This document shows positions 53,432 through 64,000 of a stretch of 64,000 nt of DNA, in pieces (positions within the stretch are counted from its first letter, which is position 1; each line of letters starts with the position of its first letter). Location: positions 5,069 to 69,068 of the forward strand of contig CAJULX010000010.1 in assembly GCA_910587245.1 (NCBI GenBank), written 5' to 3'. Both the position numbers and the translations under genes were made by a program. The notes beneath the pieces are model-generated. The model searched no databases. It was not told where the DNA came from and saw only the letters and a program-made list of their open reading frames with translations. Origin of the DNA: Candidatus Gastranaerophilales bacterium (GTDB taxonomy: Bacteria; Cyanobacteriota; Vampirovibrionia; Gastranaerophilales; Gastranaerophilaceae).

Positions 53432-54157
53432 GTGGATTTTATTCATTTAAATATTAATGATATGTTTGATTTCGAGCTTGCTTTGCTTTTTAGAATAGGT
53501 GCTTCAATTCTTTTTGCGTTTCTTCTTGGTTTGGAACGTGAAATTACCGGAAAATTTGCAGGTCTCAGAACACATATTCTTGTAAGTGCAGGGGCTTGCG
53601 TATTTACGCTTTTATCGATTTATGCATTTAAAATGCAGGTGATAGCGGGCTTTGCAGGTGTGAATGACCCTGCAAGAATTGCTGCTCAAATAATTACAGG
53701 TATAGGTTTTATCGGTGCAGGAACGGTTATGCGCCATGGAAACAATATTTACGGAATTACAACGGCTGCAACTCTTTGGATGTGTGCTGCAATCGGTATG
53801 GCATGCGGTACGGGAATGTTTGATATAGCAGCTGTTGCTACGGTTTTTTCTTTAATTGTACTTGTTCTTGTCAGAAAGTTTGAGAGAAATTTTTTATCAA
53901 GCAAATCTTACGAATCAAAATTAATGGAAATAAAATTAACCGCGCCCATTGTTCATCTTGAAGCAATGAATAGCCTTTTGGATAAAAACTTTAATAAAAT
54001 TCAAAAAATTGAAAGAAAGATAGTTAATGATGAAAAAGGCAGCTATATTGTAATAAAAATGCGTATTCTGGCGGGCTGTCCTTTAAGTGAAGTGAATGAT
54101 ACTTTCCGCGATAAAGAATTTATTGAAAAGCTTGAAATTCAAGAAATTGATGAGTAA
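53432..54157 (+). CDS. mgtC: MgtC/SapB family membrane protein
   Basis: 241 aa, GTG start. It has GLEREITGKFAGLRTHILV and ITGIGFIGAG. Confidence 0.85.
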   Translation: MDFIHLNINDMFDFELALLFRIGASILFAFLLGLEREITGKFAGLRTHILVSAGACVFTLLSIYAFKMQVIAGFAGVNDPARIAAQIITGIGFIGAGTVMRHGNNIYGITTAATLWMCAAIGMACGTGMFDIAAVATVFSLIVLVLVRKFERNFLSSKSYESKLMEIKLTAPIVHLEAMNSLLDKNFNKIQKIERKIVNDEKGSYIVIKMRILAGCPLSEVNDTFRDKEFIEKLEIQEIDE

Positions 54158-54241
54158 AAATTTTATTTCAATTTGTAAATACTGTACTTAAAATTTTGCT
54201 TGTGTTATTGTTTAATTGTAAAGATATATAATGGAAGCAAA

Positions 54242-56770
54242 ATGAGAGTTCACGAACTTGCTAAAGAACTGAATGTCAGCGCTAAAGAATTAATGGAAAC
54301 AGCCAAAGAGAAACTCGGGATTGTTTTTAAATCTCATAGTGTAGCTGTTTCACAGGGTAATATTGATAATATACGTGCTTTATATGTTAAGCCCGAAGAA
54401 AAGAAGGCTAAGCCTAAGGCTTTTATTGTGAAAAAAGCAAAGGTTGAAAAAACCGAAGAAGCTCCTAAAGCCGAGGAGGTACAAGATACTCCGAAGATTA
54501 CCGTTACGAAAGTTGTAAAAACCAGCACCGAAAAACCAAAACCTCCAGTGGTTGAACCCTCTGTTAAAGAAAGACCAAAACTTGAAATTGTACGTCCTGC
54601 GCCAAAGCAGCAGGATGGTTCTGCTCCACAGGCTTCTGTCCGTCCTGCGCACAGGGAGCCTGCAAACAGAATTCCCGATATTGCTTCTCTGACACGTAAA
54701 AATTTTGGTAAACCTGCAGCAAAGGATGAAAAAACTTCTAAGGATGGTGCTAAATCAAAAGATAAAGCACAGACTAAACCAAATGCAGATAATCAGGCTC
54801 AAAAAACTCCTATAAAAAGACATATTATTTCGCCTGATATGTATGCTAATCAAGATTTCAGAAACAAAAAGAAGAAAAAAGAAAAAAATTATAAAAACAA
54901 GGAAGAAGAACAGGAAAGAATAAGTCTTGAAAAGGCTGTGCAATCTAAGCATAAAAAACATGTTCAGGAAGTCGAGTCCCTTGAAGAAGTAAAACAGGTT
55001 GTAATAAACAGACCCATGACCGTTGGGGAACTTGCAGATAAAATTAGAAAATCTCCGGCGGAAATTATTAAATTCTTAATGATGGAAAAAATCATGGTGA
55101 CTGTAAATTCACCTATAGATATTGACACAGCCAAAAGAGCGGCTATAAATTTTGAAATTGAACCTTTGGATGAGGATATTGAGGCATTTATTCAGGAAGA
55201 AACAGAAAAAGAAGAAAAGAACAAAATCCTTCTTGAAGCTGATGAAAAATCTATTATTAAAAGGGCGCCTGTTGTTACTATTATGGGGCATGTTGACCAT
55301 GGTAAAACAACCCTTCTGGATAGCATCCGTGCTTCAAAGCACAAAATTGTTTCAACGGAAGTCGGCGGAATTACCCAGAGTATCGGTGCTTATACTGTTT
55401 GGCAGGGTGATAAAAAGATTGTATTTATTGACACACCCGGTCACGAAGCATTTACTCAAATGCGTGCAAGAGGTGCAAAGTCTACCGATATTGCTATTCT
55501 TGTAGTTGCGGCAGATGACGGTGTTATGCCGCAGACGATTGAAGCTATTAATCACGCAAAATCAGCAAATGTACCGATTATTGTGGCTGTGAATAAGATG
55601 GATAAGCCCGATGCAGACCCTGATAAAGTATTGCAGCAAATGACGGAATACGGTCTTGTGCCGGAAGCTTGGGGTGGAGATACAATCTGTGTTAAAGTTT
55701 CAGCTATTCAGGGCAAAGGTATTGATGAACTTTTAGAATATATTTTGCTTGTTGCTGAAATGCAGGAATTAAAGGCCGTTAAGGATTGTCCCGGAATGGG
55801 TGTTATAATTGAAGCCAATCTTGATAAAGGTAAAGGGCCTGTGGCTACGATGCTTGTTCAAAACGGTATTTTAAATGTCGGTGATTCAATTGTTGTGGGT
55901 ACCGTAGGCGGTAAAGTCCGCGCTTTGCTTGATGATTCAGGGCAAAGAGTGAAATCCGCAGGACCGTCAACTCCTGTTGAAATTTTAGGATTAAATGAAG
56001 TTCCTCAGGCTGGTGATGCTTTTGAAGTTGTGCAAAATGAGCGCGTTATGAAGCAGATTGTAAATGAAAGAAAGCAACGCGAAAGAGTTAGCAGACTTGA
56101 AGCTATGGCTGTTTCTCATGTTAAAAAGGAAACGCTTGCAAATGATGAAATTAAAAATCTTAATTTAATCATCAAAGCCAATACAAACGGTTCTGCTGAA
56201 GCAGTTTCACAGGCTATTCAGAATGTTAAATCAACCGAGGTTATCCCGAAAATTATGCACGTTGGTGTCGGGGATATCTCAGAAGCCGATGTAATGCTTG
56301 CTTCCGCAAGTGATGCAATAATTCTCGGTTTTAGCGTTAAAGAAGATGCAAATGCTCTTGCTGCAGCTGAAAGAGAACTTGTTCAAATCAAAAAATACGA
56401 CATTATTTATCAAGTTCTGGAAGATGTTGAAAAAACCATGCTTTCTCTATTGGAGCCCGAAATTCAGGAAGTAGAACTCGGTACGGCGGAAGTAAGGCAG
56501 ATTTTTACATTCGGAAAAACCGGCAAAATTGCAGGTTGTTATGTAACTGAAGGTAAAATTGTGCGTTCCAAAACAGCTGTGGTTAAAAGAGGCGGAGTTG
56601 AAATTTACAAAGGCGAGATTAATCAGCTGAAACGCTTTAAAGACGATGTTAAAGAAGTTGCGCAGGGTTTTGAATGCGGTATTTCATTTGCAAAATTCAA
56701 CGACCTTCAAGAAGGCGATATAATTGAGGTTTCAACAACAAAAGAAATTGAAAGAAGTTCGCTCGTTTAA
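54242..56770 (+). CDS. infB: translation initiation factor IF-2
   Basis: ATG 54242 ([10 protein letters not shown]) starts the protein. It has a Lys/Pro-rich linker and the GTPase motifs [14 protein letters not shown] and NKMD. Confidence 0.95.
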
Positions 56771-56786
56771 TGTAAGGAAGATTATC

Positions 56787-57140
56787 ATGACACTTAGAAA
56801 TGAAAAAGTTAGAAAAGCTCTCATGAGAGAAATTTCTGATATTTTATTCCGTGAAGTTAAAAATCCCCATATCACAGGAATTGTTTCTATCACTGATGTT
56901 GAAGTATCTCATGATAATTCTTATGCTAAAGTTTTTTATAGCGTAATGGCGGATGATGAGGATAAAAAGAAAGAAACCGTTGAAGCGCTCAAAACCGTGA
57001 CTCCAAAAATCCGATATGAAGTTGGAAAACGTATCAGGCTTAGAAAAACGCCTGAGTTGAATTTTATTCTGGATGAATCTTTGGAAAGAGGTTTTAGAAT
57101 CACTAAATTAATTGACCAAATTTCTAAAGGTGAGATTTAG
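56787..57140 (+). CDS. rbfA: ribosome-binding factor A
   Basis: ATG 56787 follows an AAGGAAG RBS. RKALMREISDIL...ITDVEVSHD is present. Confidence 0.9.
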   Translation: MTLRNEKVRKALMREISDILFREVKNPHITGIVSITDVEVSHDNSYAKVFYSVMADDEDKKKETVEALKTVTPKIRYEVGKRIRLRKTPELNFILDESLERGFRITKLIDQISKGEI

Positions 57141-57164
57141 AATTGTTAAAAGGTTAATATTTGT

Positions 57165-58112
57165 ATGCCTGAACGAGATTTTTCCGATAACAAAAAAGAA
57201 TTCACCGATAATAGTGATGTTTTTTGTTTTTTAAATATATATAAACCCCGTGGAATTACCTCATTTGATGTTATTTATAAACTCAGGAAGCATCTTAAAA
57301 TTAAAAAAATCGGACATTCGGGTACGCTTGACCCTGAGGCGGAAGGTGTTATGCAGGTTGGAGTTGGCAAAGCTACCAGGCTTTTAGATTATCTGTGCTC
57401 GGATAAAAGGTATATCGCAAAAATCAGGTTTGGATATTTTTCTTCAACCGGTGATGCGGAAGGCGAAGTAACACCATTTAATACTCCGAAATTCACAGAG
57501 GATGAACTTTTGGTTGCAATGAATTCTATGATAGGAAAGATAGAACAAATTCCTCCTGCGTATAGTGCCATAAAAGTGGGCGGCAAAAAGCTTTGTGACC
57601 TTGCAAGAAAAAATAAACTTGAAGGTGTTGAAATTCCAAAAAGAGTGATTGAGATTTATGATGCAAAATTATTAACTTTTGTAACAGACTCACATCCCGA
57701 TATTCCTATGAAGCAAATTCCTTATGAGGCTGAAATTGAAATCTTCTGTTCAAAAGGTACTTATATTCGCTCTTTTGCTGTAGATTTGGCGGAAAAACTA
57801 GGTACATGTGCTTATTTGACTTCTCTTATTCGTACTGCTGCCGGAAAATTTAATATCAAAGATTCAATTCAAACGGATGCAGTTTTGCTTGATAAGCATG
57901 GCGTGGAACCTTCTAAAGCATTGAATTTGCCTGAATATATACTAAATGAATCAGAGTATCTTAAAGTTCTTAACGGTGTATCATTTCTTTCAAGGTATAC
58001 TATATCTGAAAATACGACATTAATGCTTATTTATAAAAATCATCTTGTATCAATTGCAGTTTTATCGGATAATATGATTGTATGCAAAAAGGTTTTTAAA
58101 CAGCACGTTTAA
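57165..58112 (+). CDS. truB: tRNA pseudouridine(55) synthase
   Basis: 315 aa with GHSGTLDPEAEGV (catalytic Asp) and PPAYSAIKVGG. Confidence 0.9.
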   Translation: MPERDFSDNKKEFTDNSDVFCFLNIYKPRGITSFDVIYKLRKHLKIKKIGHSGTLDPEAEGVMQVGVGKATRLLDYLCSDKRYIAKIRFGYFSSTGDAEGEVTPFNTPKFTEDELLVAMNSMIGKIEQIPPAYSAIKVGGKKLCDLARKNKLEGVEIPKRVIEIYDAKLLTFVTDSHPDIPMKQIPYEAEIEIFCSKGTYIRSFAVDLAEKLGTCAYLTSLIRTAAGKFNIKDSIQTDAVLLDKHGVEPSKALNLPEYILNESEYLKVLNGVSFLSRYTISENTTLMLIYKNHLVSIAVLSDNMIVCKKVFKQHV

Positions 58113-58141
58113 GATTTAAAAAGCGTTATACAGAGGGAAAT

Positions 58142-58711
58142 ATGGGTATTTTTATAAGAACTTTAATTGTAACCGTTATTTTTTGTTTAGGGTATTTTGC
58201 GTGGGTTTATTTTTCAAAAGAGGCTTTCAGCCCTGAACTGCAAATAACGGGTGAAGCTAAAAATGTTGTGGTTCAAGATAAGACACCTGAAGAAACCTCT
58301 GAAACCGAAAATAAAATGAAAGATATAAAAATTGCTTTTTTAACAGGTGAGAATACCGTTGAATATGTTTCAAGAAAAGCAAAAAATAAAACCTTATACA
58401 GTGCCTTGGGCTTGCTTTTAAAAGGACCAAGCGAAGAAGAAAAAGCTCATGGAATTTTTACTGAAATTCCCTCAAATGCGCGTCTTATCTCTGTTAAGAA
58501 AGATGAAGCCGATAATTCCATAATTATTAATTTGACTCAAGAATTTGGTGAGGGCGGCGGTACACAGTCAATTCAGGCCAGACTGGATCAAATTGTTAAG
58601 ACTGTAAATGCTAATGCAGGACACATTCCCGTTTACCTTTATTTGGATGGTAAAAAGGCGCAATATCTCGGAGGAGAAGGGATTTATATTGAGCAGCCTA
58701 TAAACAGATAA
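58142..58711 (+). CDS. GerMN-domain protein
   Basis: 189 aa with an N-terminal TM segment. LLLKGPSEEEKAHGIFTEIP...INLTQEF is the GerMN pattern. Confidence 0.65.
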   Translation: MGIFIRTLIVTVIFCLGYFAWVYFSKEAFSPELQITGEAKNVVVQDKTPEETSETENKMKDIKIAFLTGENTVEYVSRKAKNKTLYSALGLLLKGPSEEEKAHGIFTEIPSNARLISVKKDEADNSIIINLTQEFGEGGGTQSIQARLDQIVKTVNANAGHIPVYLYLDGKKAQYLGGEGIYIEQPINR

Positions 58712-59017: not shown

Positions 59018-59155
59018 AAATAAAATTTATAACTATTATATTTTACAATACTTTTTTATTTGCGCACAGTACATTTTAAGTATAAAACTTGAAATTTACA
59101 CTGCATAATTTTTTATTGAGCACTTAATATGAAGGGTATATTTTGCTTATTTTTT

Positions 59156-59422
59156 CTAAAGCCAAAACATATTGCGAACTGAACCAAAGTGCGTGTTTGT
59201 GTTGCTGCCGTCTGTCCACGTGGTAGCGCAGAACCTGCTCCAATACCATCCGCCTCCATTCAAGTAGTAAGCTGTATATGCCTTACCACCGTCTGTGCAG
59301 TTAGTGGTGTCGGTATAGGCCGTAGAAGACCATACGTGGTACGGGTTCCAAGCCTGCTTACTTGCGCTGATACCCTGGTTCGGACAGTGCGGCGTACCGC
59401 TCACGCTGGAGTTGTTACACAA
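59156..59422 (-). other. silent C-terminal cassette C1 (lectin-fold variable module)
   Basis: Encodes CNNSSVSGTPHCPNQGISASKQAWNPYHVWSST...FGSVR. There is no ATG (only a TTG), and no RBS or N-terminal pilin part. A 1-nt insertion before the 3' box changes CCFGF to NMFWL. Confidence 0.85.
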
Positions 59423-59478
59423 GTAATTGAGAGATTTCTTGTCTTTTATAATAAATTTTTCATTAAAAAGAAAACTTA

Positions 59479-59564
59479 AGCAATTTTTTGCTATCTCCCG
59501 ACGGGTTAGAAAAGTGCCTTAAATCTGTCTGTGCTCGTAAGCGCAAACACTCTTTTAAAGGCAC
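59479..59564 (-). repeat. inter-cassette structured element E1 (unclassified; candidate RNA or ssDNA fold)
   Basis: Minus-sense structure: P1 GUGCCUU/AAGGCAC, P2 GUUUGCGC-UUACGA-GCACAGAC, the 18-mer AACCCGUCGGGAGAUAGC, and P3 AGCAA/UUGCU. Confidence 0.6.
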
Positions 59565-59617
59565 TTTTAAAAAAGCAAAATATACTATAAAAATATAACA
59601 TAAAAAGAAACTTATTT

Positions 59618-59878
59618 TTATTCAAAGCCAAAACGACAACGAACTGAACCAAAGTGTGTCCAGCCATCAGTTTTCGTGGTAGCGCAGAACCAATTGACCG
59701 CCCAGGTGGTACCATCCAGATAGTGAGTCCTGTAAGCCGCCCCGCTGTCCGCGCAGTTACTGTGTGTATAGGGCGTAGAAGACCATACGTGGTACGGGTG
59801 GTGATTCTGCTTACTTGCGCTGATATACTGGTACGGACAGTGTGGTGTCGAGACATTTGTATTTTTGCCTCTAAAATT
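59618..59878 (-). other. silent C-terminal cassette C2
   Basis: The open frame has no Met: NVSTPHCPYQYISASKQNHHPYHVWSSTPYTHSNCADSG...THFGSVRCRFGFE. The ORF track only shows an out-of-frame ORF here. Confidence 0.85.
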
Positions 59879-59933
59879 TTAAGAAGAATTTTTTATTTTT
59901 CGTTAAATTTTTTAACAAAAAACCTTTATTTTA

Positions 59934-60019
59934 AGCAATCTTAATAAAAATTGCTATCTTCTGACGGGTTGAATCCCTTATCTGTCTGTATCCTTAAATA
60001 CAGACACTCTATTAGGGAT
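59934..60019 (-). repeat. inter-cassette structured element E2
   Basis: P1 AUCCCU/AGGGAU, P2 GUCUGUAU-UUAAGG-AUACAGAC, AACCCGUCAGAAGAUAGC, and P3 AGCAAU/AUUGCU. Confidence 0.6.
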
Positions 60020-60051
60020 AAAGTTTCTTTTTTTAAGATATAAACCTTTTT

Positions 60052-60285
60052 AAAGCCAAAACAACAACGAACTGACCCAAAGTGCGTGTAGCCATTGCTT
60101 GCCCACGTGGTAGCGCAGAACCCATTGATAGCCCAGCTCGTACCATCTAAGTACCAAGCGTAGTAAGCCTTACCGCTGTCCGTACAGTTACTGCTTGTAA
60201 AGGCCGTAGAAGACCATATATGGTTCGGGTGCTGATTCTGCTTACTTGCGCTGATACCCTGAGCCGGACAGTAAGATGTTGCATT
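60052..60285 (-). other. silent C-terminal cassette C3
   Basis: An in-frame TAA at 60286-60288 is followed by NATSYCPAQGISASKQNQHPNHIWSST...THFGSVRCCFGF. There is no Met. The frame stays open through the downstream element to 59941. Confidence 0.85.
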
Positions 60286-60344
60286 TTAAAAGAAGAATTC
60301 TTTTTTGGCAGGTAAAATTATTCACCTGTCAAACTATAATATTA

Positions 60345-60452
60345 AGCTGTAAAATCTCTTATAATTTTAATTTTACTGCTATCTTCCGACGGGTTAAAAA
60401 GCTCATAAATCTGCTGTTATCCTTAAATAACAGCACTCTTTTAAAATGAGCT
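60345..60452 (-). repeat. inter-cassette structured element E3
   Basis: P1 AGCUCAU/AUGAGCU, P2 GCUGUUAU-UUAAGG-AUAACAGC, AACCCGUCGGAAGAUAGC, and P3 AGCAGUAAAAU/AUUUUACAGCU. Confidence 0.6.
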
Positions 60453-60508
60453 TATAGGTTTATTTTGTATTAATTGCTTTTTACAATAAGTTATTTAGTT
60501 TTCAATTT

Positions 60509-60814
60509 TCATATTTTGTGAAACATATTTTCTTCAAAGCCAAAACTACAACGAACTGATCCAAAGTTTGTGTAGCCATTTGTATGCGTGGTAGCGCAGA
60601 ATCCGCCCAAACTCCAGCTCGTACCATTTAAGTTCCAAGCGTAGTAAGCCTTACCGCTGTCCGTACAGTTAGAAGTAGACCAACTATTTGTATAGGCCGT
60701 AGAAGTCCATATGTAGTTCGGATACTGGGCCTGCTTACTTGCGCTGATAAGCTGATGCGGACTGCTTTTACAGATTATAAAAGCTACACGGAAGAATTTT
60801 TCATTATTCTGCAA
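60509..60814 (-). other. silent C-terminal cassette C4 (homology 60536-60772)
   Basis: Encodes CKSSPHQLISASKQAQYPNYIWTST...NFGSVRCSFGF. It lacks about 8 codons (SVSGTPHC) of the 5' box. It shares 33 identical nt with the expressed gene. Confidence 0.85.
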
Positions 60815-60855
60815 ATTCTTTGCAAATTAATGTTCCTGAATTTTTAAGAATATTA

Positions 60856-60931
60856 AGCAATTTTTGCTATCCTCCGACGGGTTGAAGTTCCTTTACCTGC
60901 CTGTACCCGTAAGTACAAAACACTCAAAAGG
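60856..60931 (-). repeat. inter-cassette structured element E4
   Basis: P1 CCUUU/AAAGG, P2 UUUGUAC-UUACGG-GUACAGG (two G-U pairs in minus sense only), AACCCGUCGGAGGAUAGC, and P3 AGCAA/UUGCU. Confidence 0.6.
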
Positions 60932-60950
60932 CATGCTTCACATTTTGAAA

Positions 60951-61256
60951 TTAAGGCGACCTTATAAAGCCAAAACAACAACGAACTGACCCAAAGTGCG
61001 TGTAGCCGGGTTCCGTAGGGTGTGTGCTCACGATTGTGGTAGCGCAGAACCCGCCCAGAACCATGCTTGTACCATTCAAGCCGTAAGTGCGGTATGTTGT
61101 ACCGCCTGTGCAATTGGCAGTGTCAGTATAGGTCGTAGAAGTCCATATGTGGCTCGGCCACTGACTCTGCTTACTTGCGCTTATGTTCTGTGCCGGACAG
61201 TATGGTACACCGCTCACGATAGTGTGGCTACACCCACTTTGCGGAAGAATTTTTTT
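60951..61256 (-). other. silent C-terminal cassette C5
   Basis: Encodes GCSHTIVSGVPYCPAQNISASKQSQWPSHIWTSTTYTDTANCTGGTTYRT...HFGSVRCCFGF. It is the closest match to the variable part of the expressed gene. Confidence 0.85.
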
Positions 61257-61298
61257 TCATGACGGAAAATTTTTCCCGACCCAATTTTGCAATTATTA

Positions 61299-61385
61299 AG
61301 CAAATCTTTTTTGCTATCTTCCGACGGGTTATAAGGCGCTTGAATCTGTTTGTATCCTTAAATACAAACACTCCTTCATTTTGCC
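61299..61385 (-). repeat. inter-cassette structured element E5
   Basis: Split P1 (GGC..GAA / UUC..GCC), P2 GUUUGUAU-UUAAGG-AUACAAAC, AACCCGUCGGAAGAUAGC, and P3 AGCAAA/UUUGCU. Confidence 0.55.
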
Positions 61386-61395
61386 CTTTTATTCT

Positions 61396-61665
61396 AAAGC
61401 CAAAACGAAAACGAACTGAACCAAAGGTCGTGTAGCCTGGTGCTGTTGCGTTCGTGCTCGCATATGTGGTATCGCAGAACCAACCAAGCTTCATACTTGA
61501 GCCGTCCAGATACCAGATATGGTACGTAAGACCGCCACCACTACACTTGCTCGTGTCAATATAAGTCGTAGAAGACCATAAGTGGTTCGGGTACTGACGC
61601 TGCTTACTTGCGCTGATACCCTGTGACGGACAGTACGGTACATTGCCTGCACTAAGCTGTCGCAC
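61396..61665 (-). other. silent C-terminal cassette C6 (5'-truncated, abuts C7)
   Basis: Encodes NVPYCPSQGISASKQRQYPNHLWSST...TFGSVRFRFGF. It starts 15 nt after the C7 stop and has no leader element. The track ORF runs on through element E5. Confidence 0.8.
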
Positions 61666-61680
61666 TTTATACCGCCTTTG

Positions 61681-62028
61681 CTACTTTTTTATTCTAAAGC
61701 CAAAACAACAACGAACTGATCCAAAGTGCGTGTTGCCATTTGTGTTCGTGGTAGCGCAGAACCCATTGAGTGCCCAGCTCGTACCGTCTAAGCGCCAAGC
61801 GTAGTAAGCCTTACCGCTGTCCGTACAATTACTTGATGTATAGGCCGTAGAAGACCATATGTGGTTCGGGTACTGATTCTGCTTACTTGCGCTCGGCCAC
61901 TGTGCCGGACAGTACGGTATACCGCTCACGCTAGAGTAGCTACACCAGCTCATTTTAGAAGAATTTTCCTTCAAACCGATGAAATTTTCATCAGCTGAAG
62001 TTCCTGAATTTTCAAGAATATTAAGCAT
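61681..62028 (-). other. silent C-terminal cassette C7 (homology 61681-61947)
   Basis: Encodes WCSYSSVSGIPYCPAQWPSASKQNQYPNHIWSST...HFGSVRCCFGFRIKK. The core site is altered (GCTCGGCCAC instead of GCTGATACCC). Confidence 0.85.
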
Positions 62029-62121
62029 TTTTATGATTTACAAAAACTGCTATCTTCTGACGGGTTAGAATATACCTGAATGTCTGCCTGCGCCCTTGAG
62101 CACAGGCACTCTTTTTTCAGG
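62024..62121 (-). repeat. inter-cassette structured element E6
   Basis: P1 CCUGAA/UUCAGG, P2 GCCUGUGC-UCAAGG-GCGCAGGC (G-U in minus sense only), AACCCGUCAGAAGAUAGC, and P3 AGCAGUUUUU/AAAAAUGCU. Confidence 0.6.
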
Positions 62122-62270
62122 CTGATTTTTTTTAATTTTTTAGAAAAGTTTGGAAAAAAGTTAAGTTTTTATCGCTTTTTTATCTCCTCCTTTTTGTTAC
62201 AAAACTACATACAAGTCTGAATTTTTAGTTTTAACTCAACATGGCAAGAACTTTTTGTCTTTATAAAACT

Positions 62271-62492
62271 TTATCTTCCAAAGCCAAAACTACAACGAAC
62301 TGACCCATACTGCGTGTAGCCGGGTGCAGGTGTATACGTGCTCGCAAGCGTGGTAGCGCAGAACCCGCCTGCACCCCAGCTGGTACCATTCAAGCCGTAA
62401 GCGCGGTAAGCCGCGCTGCCTGTACAAACCTCCGTACTATAGGTCGTAGAAGTCCATACGTGGGCCAGGTGCTGTTTTTGTTTTTCCTCCAA
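62271..62492 (-). other. silent C-terminal cassette C8 (5' box degenerate)
   Basis: Encodes EEKQKQHLAHVWTSTTYSTEVCTGSAAYRAYGLNG...QYGSVRCSFGFGR. The ISASKQ core has been replaced. Confidence 0.8.
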
Positions 62493-62630
62493 AGTAAAAA
62501 TTGCTGAATTATTTTATTTTTACCATATAAAAGCCAAAGAATTAGAAACCAAATCAATAAACGTATCTTTATATCATTATTGAAAGGTTGCTCAAAATCC
62601 CATTTTTCTTTAATGAAATTTTGTGCCCTA

Positions 62631-62706
62631 AGCCCCACAGGGAGCTATCTTTGGACGGGTTGAAAAATCTTCTCTGTTAACACCCTTAAGCATTAACACT
62701 CCAAGA
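62631..62706 (-). repeat. inter-cassette structured element E7
   Basis: P1 is short (UCUU/AAGA). P2 is GUUAAUGC-UUAAGG-GUGUUAAC with two G-U pairs. The 18-mer is AACCCGUCCAAAGAUAGC. P3 is AGCUCC/GGGGCU. Confidence 0.55.
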
Positions 62707-62923
62707 AATAAAGTTTTACATTTTAGTACTTTAGCCCTTTTAACGCGTTTAGTCAATATTCTTCACAAAATGTTACATTATTGAAAATAGATTTCAATAT
62801 GGTATACTTCATAAAAGAAAAGTTGGAAAACATTTTTGATGTTTCTCGCTTATGTGCGCGGGAAATATTTAAAAAAGTTAAGTTGTTTTATCGTAAATAG
62901 TTTACACAAGGTTACATGTAAGT

Positions 62924-64000
62924 ATGAAAAAAGTTATTTTTTCGCATGCCAAAAATATTGCATGCAAAAATTGCGGCTCAAAACGTCGCAAAGCATTTTC
63001 ACTTGTTGAAATGCTGATGGCTCTTCTGGTAGCTTCGTTATTGCTTGCGGCTCTTGCCCCTGTAATGACAAGAAAAATGACAGAGGATAAAGTCAATGTT
63101 TCGGGTAGTTTAACTGACAGTATCTACCATGAGTACAAGGTTTTTACAAACCTCACAACAGGAGATGGCAATAGTGCTAATAAAGAGTACGAATTCGAAT
63201 TTCCACCAAACACCGATGAAACGGATGCTACGAGATTCGGTGCGATTATAGTTGCAGGGGGTGGCGGAGGTGCCGGCGCAGCTGCTTCTGATGTCAGAGG
63301 GCCAAAAACCCTTTCTTTTAATCAGGGCAATGCGGGAGGCTCTACCTCTTCTACAACAAGCGCTGTGTCATTGCCTTCGTATACCGATTACAGATTTAAC
63401 AGGTATACGGATTCAATAAAGCTGACTATTGTTAGCGGCGCAGGCGGCGGCGGCGGCGGAAACGGCGTGACTAAGACGGAAACACCGGAACTTAGTCAAT
63501 CCGTTTGCGCGGGCTATGGTATGGGAAAAACAGATACCACGGGGCATGTTGGTACTGTTAATTCTCCGCTTATCGTCTACGATTCAGCTAATAATATGTG
63601 CGTCTCAGCGTATAATCAGATTTCTTCAGGTACAAGGACTTCTCCAAGTCCGAGCCAGCCATATTGTACAACCTATTCATACAGTGGTTTTTCTACGCCG
63701 ATTTGTATGAAAGATGGTGCGTTTAATGCGTGCAACGCATTTAAGACGGCCATGGGCGGAAATATGAATTGGAGATTGCCTACGCAGACTGAGCAGTCAA
63801 AATGGACAGCGACGTTTGTTGGAAGAACAATTGCGGCAGGCGGTCTAGGTGGGTGTAACCACTCCAGCGTGAGCGGTACACCGCACTGTCCGCATCAGCT
63901 TATCAGCGCAAGTAAGCAGGTTCACGATCCGTACCACATATGGTCTTCTACGACCTATACTGACACTGCCTTTTGCACAGGCGGTACGACATACCGCACT
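62924..64000 (+). CDS. type IV prepilin-like surface protein with Gly-rich middle region and DUF1566/FISUMP-like lectin-fold C-terminus (3' end beyond window)
   Basis: An ATG at 62924 opens a frame with no stop for 359 codons to the window end. It is missing from the ORF track because no stop is reached. The N-terminus KAFSLVEMLMALLVASLLLAALAP is a prepilin cleavage/methylation-type segment. AGGGGGAGA and SGAGGGGGGNG are glycine tracts. NWRLPTQTEQSKW is the DUF1566/FISUMP hallmark. From 63851 onward the gene is homologous to cassettes C1-C8. Confidence 0.85.
   Translation, partial: MKKVIFSHAKNIACKNCGSKRRKAFSLVEMLMALLVASLLLAALAPVMTRKMTEDKVNVSGSLTDSIYHEYKVFTNLTTGDGNSANKEYEFEFPPNTDETDATRFGAIIVAGGGGGAGAAASDVRGPKTLSFNQGNAGGSTSSTTSAVSLPSYTDYRFNRYTDSIKLTIVSGAGGGGGGNGVTKTETPELSQSVCAGYGMGKTDTTGHVGTVNSPLIVYDSANNMCVSAYNQISSGTRTSPSPSQPYCTTYSYSGFSTPICMKDGAFNACNAFKTAMGGNMNWRLPTQTEQSKWTATFVGRTIAAGGLGGCNHSSVSGTPHCPHQLISASKQVHDPYHIWSSTTYTDTAFCTGGTTYRT
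63443..63457 (+). repeat. (GGC)5 trinucleotide repeat inside the pilin-like gene
   Basis: GGCGGCGGCGGCGGC encodes part of the SGAGGGGGGNG tract. Confidence 0.9.

Follow-up and report, generated by a model that had tools for sequence, protein, structure and literature searches.

Diversity-generating retroelements (DGRs) and silent-cassette gene conversion are the closest described counterparts of the locus considered here. In the canonical DGR of Bordetella phage BPP-1 (mtd with its variable region, VR; avd; the template repeat, TR; a spacer RNA; and the reverse transcriptase gene brt), one template repeat lies between avd and the gene for the reverse transcriptase (RT). A DGR homing event replaces the VR with template-derived sequence, and in the usual view of DGRs only the adenines of a single template are open to substitution, with the scaffold and length of the VR fixed. 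The silent-cassette systems pilE/pilS, vlsE/vls, and tprK of Treponema express a surface or pilus protein from one site and keep promoterless partial copies in arrays, where some copies abut in frame in the manner of vls; segments of these copies are transferred in one direction to yield mosaics. The window analyzed here is a stretch of 64,000 nt from Candidatus Gastranaerophilales bacterium (assembly GCA_910587245.1, contig CAJULX010000010.1, positions 5,069–69,068). Its right end enters a locus that shares features with both kinds of system and is very likely a DGR in which about 29 invariant template cassettes stand in place of the single template repeat.

The likeness to the BPP-1 element is extensive. 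Both have a DGR-type Avd and RT, an invariant template and a variable VR, adenine-specific substitutions, a VR placed in a C-type-lectin (CLec)-type fold (here a putative one), a template 3′ end that resembles the VR 3′ end without being identical to it, and an upstream:downstream RNA duplex around the template. Thus the locus displays what is expected of a DGR, namely an RT of the DGR clade, an adjacent Avd, invariant templates with a VR that differs from them at adenines, and structured RNA with an upstream:downstream duplex, but it has 29 cassettes where one template repeat per element is usual. It departs from BPP-1 in further respects: the templates form two arrays that flank the target gene, the VR also changes by template choice, mosaicism, and length, and the VR is internal in the protein. 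Like the silent-cassette systems it has one expression site, promoterless partial copies, and unidirectional segmental transfer to a putative surface protein, but transfer is coupled to RT and Avd, is accompanied by adenine-specific mutations, and involves cassettes with structured RNA flanks, so that the copying is not of the non-mutagenic kind that defines gene conversion.

All 29 cassettes are in frame. Eight occupy the minus strand of the window between 59151 and 62474, about 430–470 nt apart, and 21 more form a second array beyond the window end. The cassettes of the window are as follows:

62273–62474, minus strand: cassette w8, truncated at its 5′ end
61689–61946, minus strand: cassette w7
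61389–61640, minus strand: cassette w6
60959–61237, minus strand: cassette w5, donor of the 3′ 137 nt of the VR in L003 and of window VR 63946–64000, with differences at A only
60529–60762, minus strand: cassette w4, donor of 124–143 nt of the VRs in L004 and L015 (10/10 differences at A); window VR 63889–63921 is an exact match
60045–60273, minus strand: cassette w3
59617–59846, minus strand: cassette w2, donor of the last 36 nt of the VR in L007
59151–59420, minus strand: cassette w1, the last of the array, ending ..FGSVRNMFWL

Each is an open, in-frame copy of the pattern ..CP.Q.ISASKQ..P.H.WSST.YT..C..G.AY....L.G.S....FCATT...FGSVRC.FGF*, with length differences at two places. The cassettes differ mutually by 15–25% and in length. 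They are inverted with respect to the target gene, with which they form inverted repeats of 73–152 nt. The second array lies downstream of the target gene and on the same strand as the eight, and many of its cassettes abut in frame; its far end was reached through contigs of cassette open reading frames (ORFs) that a protein search with the domain had returned. All 29 cassettes end in ..TTTGGTTCAGTTCGTTGT(..)GG(C/T/A)TTTAGAAT, also written ..CGTTGT(..)TTTGG/GG(C/T/A)TTTAGAAT, and the GC-rich 3′ end of the VR reads ..CGTTGTGTTTTGGGGGCCGAACC. By analogy, this pair of 3′ ends is consistent with the relation between IMH* and IMH (initiation of mutagenic homing) sites, which determines directionality in known DGRs.

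Comparison of public assemblies locates the variation precisely. Loci were found through a neighboring GerM-like protein and a 145-aa cassette ORF, and further loci were added to reach seven assemblies of the same strain.

63858–64000, plus strand: first 143 nt of the VR, which continues to about 64090; the sole place where the seven same-strain assemblies differ

Two of the loci, L003 and L004, agree with the window for 15.7 kb (0–1 single-nucleotide polymorphism, all eight cassettes identical) and diverge from 63858 on. Over 16–18 kb, the differences among all seven assemblies fall in one 233-nt cluster (L016 14127–14359, equivalent to window 63858 to about 64090), a concentration far beyond chance in sequences that are otherwise identical. 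Each assembly has a different VR, always in frame and always with identical flanks, and the versions vary in length, as in ..FCATTFVSTHPTEPGYTHFGSVRC versus ..FCATTRTDGYTNFGSVRC; the cassettes are invariant in all seven. A syntenic cassette array with differing VRs is also present in L001 and in a further lineage, L020–L023, and the architecture is therefore conserved in this clade.

Two other observations concern the VR and its surroundings. Contigs of metagenome-assembled genomes (MAGs) at L004, L005, L007, and L008 end inside the cassette array or the VR (window about 61090–64400), which is consistent with heterogeneity within samples that breaks assemblies. About 35 nt downstream of the VR end in L016 (window-equivalent about 64130–64150) lies a short inverted repeat, CTCCGG-CGGCT-CCGGAG. 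It recalls the hairpin that follows the VR of the Bordetella phage DGR, but the sequence around it is coding and rich in Gly codons, and the repeat may be due to chance.

The origin of the VRs became apparent when each was aligned against all 29 cassettes by jumping alignment. Every VR consists of four to six cassette segments, up to 143 nt long, plus point changes. The segments are drawn from both arrays (863 and 723 nt) and from at least six different cassettes. Of 59 mismatches between VR and donor, 38 lie at template adenines (A>G 24, A>T 11, A>C 3), against an expectation of 24% (binomial p 9e-11), and at mismatched positions A is found 38 times in the donor versus 8 times in the VR (p 5e-6). 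The per-base substitution rates are 9.8% for A, 1.1% for C, 1.8% for G, and 2.5% for T, and the bias is stable across penalty settings of the alignment. Long segments display it strikingly: all six differences in the 124 nt that L004 derives from w4 are at A, as are all four in the 143 nt that L015 derives from w4 and all four in a 127-nt segment of L007. Third-position adenines, where changes are mostly synonymous, are altered at least as often (11/66), which argues for a mutational rather than a selective origin.

A leave-one-out control, in which cassettes were aligned against the other cassettes, gave 12.6 segments and 6.7 mismatches per 100 nt, with A at 28% of mismatches in the donor and 29% in the query. 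The cassettes thus show no adenine bias among themselves, and the VRs differ from this control with a Fisher probability of 7e-8. Pairwise comparison of VRs with single cassettes yields 75–89% identity without a clean adenine signature; both the complete donor set and the jumping alignment were needed to bring out the signal. When tested, no single cassette could yield all VR variants by adenine changes alone, because the VRs differ from any one cassette in length and by 15–25% in non-A differences. Since adenine changes are seen relative to several cassettes, those cassettes must themselves have been reverse-transcribed.

The genes expected of such an element lie about 8.5 kb past the window end, beyond the 21 further cassettes, and are co-oriented with all 29; within the window, a search for YxDD and GxxxSQ motifs found no RT. 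On the sense strand of the cassettes, which is the minus strand of the window, the order is tRNA-Ser, avd, RT, 21 cassettes, the target gene in opposite orientation, and the eight cassettes of the window.

L016 4414–5757 (window-equivalent about 72460–73803), minus strand: RT of 447 aa, RVT_1 60.3 bits

The RT carries the DGR-typical motifs IGNLTSQ and YVDD. Its best match in the Protein Data Bank (PDB), at E 2.7e-33, is the 328-aa RT 8ub7_A, presumably that of the Bordetella phage DGR; RTs of group II introns and retrons follow at a wide distance. The avd gene ends 16 nt before the RT start, and its 125-aa product matches PF22296 (bAvd) with 45.7 bits (cut-off 40). An earlier note on the window had proposed that a library of premade cassettes, including length variants, diversifies the same region that DGRs mutagenize, by a convergent and mechanistically distinct route. 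The library is real and in use, with eight cassettes in the window and 21 beyond it, and the varied segment proves to be literally a DGR VR. The idea of a distinct route must be given up, in view of the bAvd and DGR-type RT at the end of the array and the adenine-specific substitutions in the expressed copies.

Between the cassettes, or between groups of them, lies an element of about 90–100 nt. It comprises an outer stem, an AGAGUG internal loop, a hairpin with compensatory changes in 8/10 pairs, the invariant sequence AACCCGUC.G..GAUAGC, and a small hairpin followed by UUAA. The window contains seven copies:

62628–62714, minus strand: RNA element before w8, with covarying hairpin, invariant AACCCGTC..GATAGC, and small hairpin
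62021–62124, minus strand: RNA element before w7 and w6; the sole copy with a weak match to Rfam RT-7
61296–61386, minus strand: RNA element before w5
60853–60938, minus strand: RNA element before w4
60361–60451, minus strand: RNA element before w3
59931–60022, minus strand: RNA element before w2
59476–59565, minus strand: RNA element before w1

A stretch of 6–9 nt in the element, immediately 5′ of AACCC, pairs with the tail of whichever cassette or cassettes come next. In this long-range duplex 87% of cells are paired, as compared with 20–55% in slid controls, and 27 cells have changed on both sides, as compared with 9.4 ± 2.3 in shuffles (0/500). Seven of the eight window cassettes pair better with the preceding element than with any other of the seven elements; the following element pairs poorly. 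From this covariation, each template or template group is predicted to be closed by an upstream:downstream duplex. In the Bordetella phage DGR the template repeat is bracketed by the avd:Sp “cPRT Stop” duplex, which has been predicted in 207 other DGRs (bioRxiv 10.1101/2023.10.23.563531).

Some further observations bear on these elements and on the ORFs that they generate. The RT ORF closes with ..KKSDPSEDSS*, and these codons overlap half a copy of the inter-cassette element (GACCCATCGGAAGATAGCAG..TTGCTTAA, L016 5735–5775), so that the first template unit lies directly at the RT stop codon. A scan of viral_contigs with AACCCGTC..GATAGCA returned six chance matches, all lacking the hairpin. 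The 145-aa ORF present in public gene calls (window 61228–61665, minus strand) is w6 together with the RNA element that follows it, and gene calls of 165–184 aa in the other array are likewise read-throughs of cassettes and RNA elements. These ORFs are not genuine genes, yet they make up about half of the matches of the family in protein databases.

Several explanations that dispense with multiple templates, or with reverse transcription, deserve consideration. The most serious invokes the classical antigenic variation by silent cassettes known from Neisseria pilE/pilS or Borrelia vlsE, with RecA-type segmental gene conversion in which avd and RT would take no part or a minor one. It would account for arrays of promoterless, in-frame partial copies on either side of an expression site, and for unidirectional transfer that leaves donors unchanged and gives mosaic products. 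It does not produce adenine-specific substitutions relative to several donors, however, and changes of this kind relative to a given cassette imply that the cassette itself was reverse-transcribed. Nor does it explain why avd and RT are contiguous and co-oriented with all the cassettes, or why the cassettes carry covarying, DGR-like RNA flanks, and on balance gene conversion seems unlikely. It is considerably less probable still that the element is an ordinary single-template DGR, surrounded by the decayed VRs of former copies of the target gene. DGRs with several VRs or targets are common, to be sure, and automated surveys list multiple repeats around RTs. Against pseudogene debris, all 29 cassettes are invariant across assemblies while the VR changes; they retain an open frame, a conserved 3′ tail unlike that of the VR, and bracketing duplexes, and they lack adenine bias among themselves. 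Moreover, the VRs contain long segments (up to 143 nt) from at least six cassettes of both arrays, and the variants cannot be derived from any one cassette by adenine changes alone.

Misassembly of cassette reads into the expressed gene is suggested by the many contigs that break at the locus and by repeats that are 75–89% identical. But seven independent assemblies agree in placing in-frame VRs within the same 233 nt between identical flanks, and misassembly would introduce exact cassette sequence and cannot create adenine-specific differences; it is as improbable an account of the variation as pseudogene debris. A shufflon-type, site-specific inversion that swaps protein ends would make use of the inverted orientation of the cassettes relative to the gene and of the inverted repeats of 73–152 nt. 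Such an inversion can hardly be entertained: the genes keep one order and one orientation throughout the assemblies, the loci yielded no recombinase, and the change is confined to an internal segment. Cassettes terminate at stop codons, yet the protein must run on for about 450 aa after the VR, and because the lectin-like segment is internal, a swap of the C-terminal end by inversion is impossible.

A number of points count against the interpretation of the locus as a DGR with many templates. The mismatches include 21 of 59 that are not at A. By comparison with BPP-1 the density of adenine substitution is low, about 10% of template adenines, and the adenines of the cassettes extend beyond the few AAY codons to which classical template repeats restrict them. 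The terminal cassette of each array has no following hairpin element. The Rfam RT-7 match (an RT-associated motif) occurs in one copy of the element and reaches 25.5 bits, with a cut-off of 116.8, too weak to be relied upon. Because the VRs are MAG consensus sequences, some of the mosaic breakpoints may be assembler chimeras of coexisting variants, and homologous recombination may serve to integrate the cDNA or to transfer some of the cassette segments.

The target of diversification begins within the window and is cut by its end:

62924–64000, plus strand: 5′ 1077 nt (359 codons, from translation) of the DGR target gene
62981–63055, plus strand: prepilin-type N-terminal cleavage/methylation motif ..KAFSLVEMLMALLVASLLLAALAP.., residues 20–44 (PF07963, TIGR02532)
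63503–64000, plus strand: divergent DUF1566/Lcl_C-like (C-type-lectin-like) domain, assigned from sub-threshold Lcl_C matches, transitive homology, and an AlphaFold2 (AF2) model; about 30 codons lie beyond the window end

The encoded product starts with the prepilin-type N-terminus KAFSLVEMLMALLVASLL, continues through glycine-rich stretches, and has a Cys-rich segment from about residue 194. The N-terminus scores 25 bits with PF07963 (cut-off 21.2) and 19.6 bits with TIGR02532 (cut-off 16.3), and the cleavage-site sequence KA↓FSLVEMLMALLVASLL displays the Glu at +5 and the hydrophobic helix of type IV pilin-like proteins. Judged by these sequence features, the target is a pilin-like (prepilin-type) putative surface protein. 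The full-length protein has 852–853 aa in the same-strain copies L003, L015, and L016, and 852–885 aa once the related loci L001 and L002 are included. In those same-strain copies the varied segment forms the C-terminal 80 or so residues of an internal domain and ends in FGSVRCVLGAEPT; FGSVRC is followed by VLGAEPT... and by a glycine-rich region of about 450 aa (Gly_rich_2 domain). The motifs quoted in the earlier note are indeed encoded by the gene, AFKTAMGGNMNWRLPTQTEQSKW at 63737–63805 (plus strand) and the ...SASKQVHDPYHIWSSTTYTDTAFCTGGTTYRT stretch up to 64000. The FGSVRC.FGF ending that it placed at 63700–64000 is absent from the gene there and is found only in the eight minus-strand cassettes, 59151–62474; the varied segment, which it described as a C-terminal stretch, is internal in the protein.

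Other proteins of Gastranaerophilales resemble the target. A near-identical prepilin-type N-terminus (FSLVEMLMALLVASLLLAALAPVMT; window 62924–63060, matches P0001–P0036) and glycine-rich domains (PF21722) occur in many Gastranaerophilales proteins, whose sequences suggest an extensive family of paralogous, pilin-like surface proteins. An 885-aa relative of the target at L002 9380–12037, in genome GCA_910587055.1 (also L021), has a VR-like segment and adjoins an XRE-like regulator, with no cassettes within 16 kb. It was considered as a cassette-less orthologue, but it is a paralogue, since the syntenic cassette locus lies on a different contig of that assembly.

The assignment of the varied domain to the Lcl_C (PF07603, formerly DUF1566) family holds only indirectly. 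The profile gives 18.4–22 bits on a window/cassette chimera and on the L003 and L002 proteins, as compared with a gathering cut-off of 34.9, and no match on the L001 protein. TIGR02145 (Fibrobacter succinogenes major paralogous domain) has no match at E ≤ 10 on the target protein, and a search of PDB sequences with a profile of the domain found nothing. An exhaustive phmmer search with the 167-residue domain fragment of the window matched only 26 proteins among 1.84 billion representatives, about 14 of which are cassette-derived ORFs of other genomes. The matches include P0046 (2.6e-14), P0048 (8e-12), P0057, and P0064, and it is because their matched stretches are Lcl_C domains (99, 101, 89, and 36.5 bits, respectively) that the domain can be regarded as a divergent Lcl_C relative. 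Both share the motifs WRLPT..E...W, WSS(T), and a terminal S(V/A)RC(V). The domain differs from typical members in its score below the Pfam cut-off, in an N-terminal extension and long Cys-containing insertions, and in its location within a pilin-like, glycine-rich protein. Thus the DUF1566/FISUMP fold suggested in the earlier note survives as transitive homology to Lcl_C, but not as a Pfam match above threshold nor as a match to TIGR02145. A survey of MAGs (PMC11661182) names DUF1566, which has a CLec fold, as a domain known to bear VRs in DGR targets.

Structure prediction is compatible with this assignment. An AF2 model of the domain of an orthologue, P0042 (76% identical), has a pLDDT of 86.3 and a pTM of 0.85. 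A Foldseek search of the PDB with this model gave as best matches the C-terminal domain of Bd2740 and the snake-venom C-type-lectin-like proteins 1c3a, 1v7p, and 1ukm, all non-significant (E 0.2–2; TM 0.47–0.54 normalized to the target); a search of BFVD gave no informative match. A model of the truncated window domain, built from a shallow alignment, was dropped because of its pLDDT of 41. In the P0042 model the segment covered by the cassettes corresponds to the last three predicted strands and two loops, and the two most variable stretches, which also vary in length, coincide with predicted loops of lower pLDDT.

These features suggest how the locus might work. The cassette units would be transcribed, possibly from divergent promoter-like sites between the arrayed cassettes and the target gene:

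62728–62808: divergent promoter-like sites, consensus matches only; 62781–62808 (plus strand) toward the target gene, 62797–62770 and 62756–62728 (minus strand) toward the cassettes

The count of such sites is weakly elevated (16, versus 10.4 ± 3.0 in shuffles). RT and Avd would then copy one cassette unit into adenine-mutagenized cDNA, which would replace the VR from a fixed 3′ end up to a variable 5′ crossover. A mosaic could be built by successive events with different cassettes, or by template switching. As a result, a lectin-like domain on a pilin-like adhesin would have its binding face diversified by combination as well as by mutation. The locus is probably, in other words, a natural “combinatorial DGR,” in which one RT–Avd pair serves some 29 self-contained template-RNA units and the VR is diversified by the choice and mosaic joining of cassettes, by length changes in two loops, and by adenine mutagenesis.

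The surroundings of the locus are those of a chromosome. Upstream, at 53432–58711, are housekeeping genes (MgtC-like, infB, rbfA, truB, and a GerM-domain protein) that are syntenic in all related loci, from which it follows that the DGR locus is chromosomal; no phage genes were seen in its vicinity. At the other end, a tRNA-Ser(tga) lies directly upstream of avd (L016 3807–3894 and 3901–3975, window-equivalent about 74242–74410). In L017 the 75-nt spacer that separates the tRNA from avd carries 23 differences, the rest being identical except for the VR; the spacer may represent a scar left by integration or a further site of variation.

Elements with more than one template-like repeat per RT are not without precedent in automated surveys, where they are treated as complications of automated calling and some of them were taken out. 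Those surveys report no array, no alternative use of templates, and no mosaic VRs, in contrast to the 29 templates found here and the evidence from populations that many of them are used. No description of multi-template DGRs, of arrays of template repeats, or of DGRs in Melainabacteria was found in the literature, and a scan of JGI metagenome_contigs with patterns of the domain found no relative. A functional parallel is provided by Bacteroides DGRs that act on Type V pilus adhesins (bioRxiv 10.1101/2024.11.15.621889), in which a gut bacterium likewise diversifies an adhesive, pilus-associated protein. The type of pilus differs, the N-terminus here being of the prepilin type, and its abstract does not speak of more than one template per element.

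The presence of a template library for one RT suggests that the restriction to a single template has been lifted at this locus, making more sequence space accessible and changes in loop length possible. The locus blurs the divide between silent-cassette gene conversion and mutagenic retrohoming, which have been considered separate classes. If the proposed scheme is correct, the bracketing, covarying duplex would allow the RT to recognize many different templates, and the locus would be a bacterial counterpart of the cassette gene conversion and hypermutation that operate in vertebrate antibody genes. Twenty-nine templates with covarying flanking duplexes also constitute a natural experiment on RNA recognition by DGRs, with a bearing on the reprogramming of DGRs for directed evolution. 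Programs that search for DGRs in the expectation of one TR/VR pair probably misdescribe loci of this kind. For the organism itself, an uncultured Gastranaerophilales lineage of the gut, the locus points to strong and fluctuating selection on a pilin-like adhesin.

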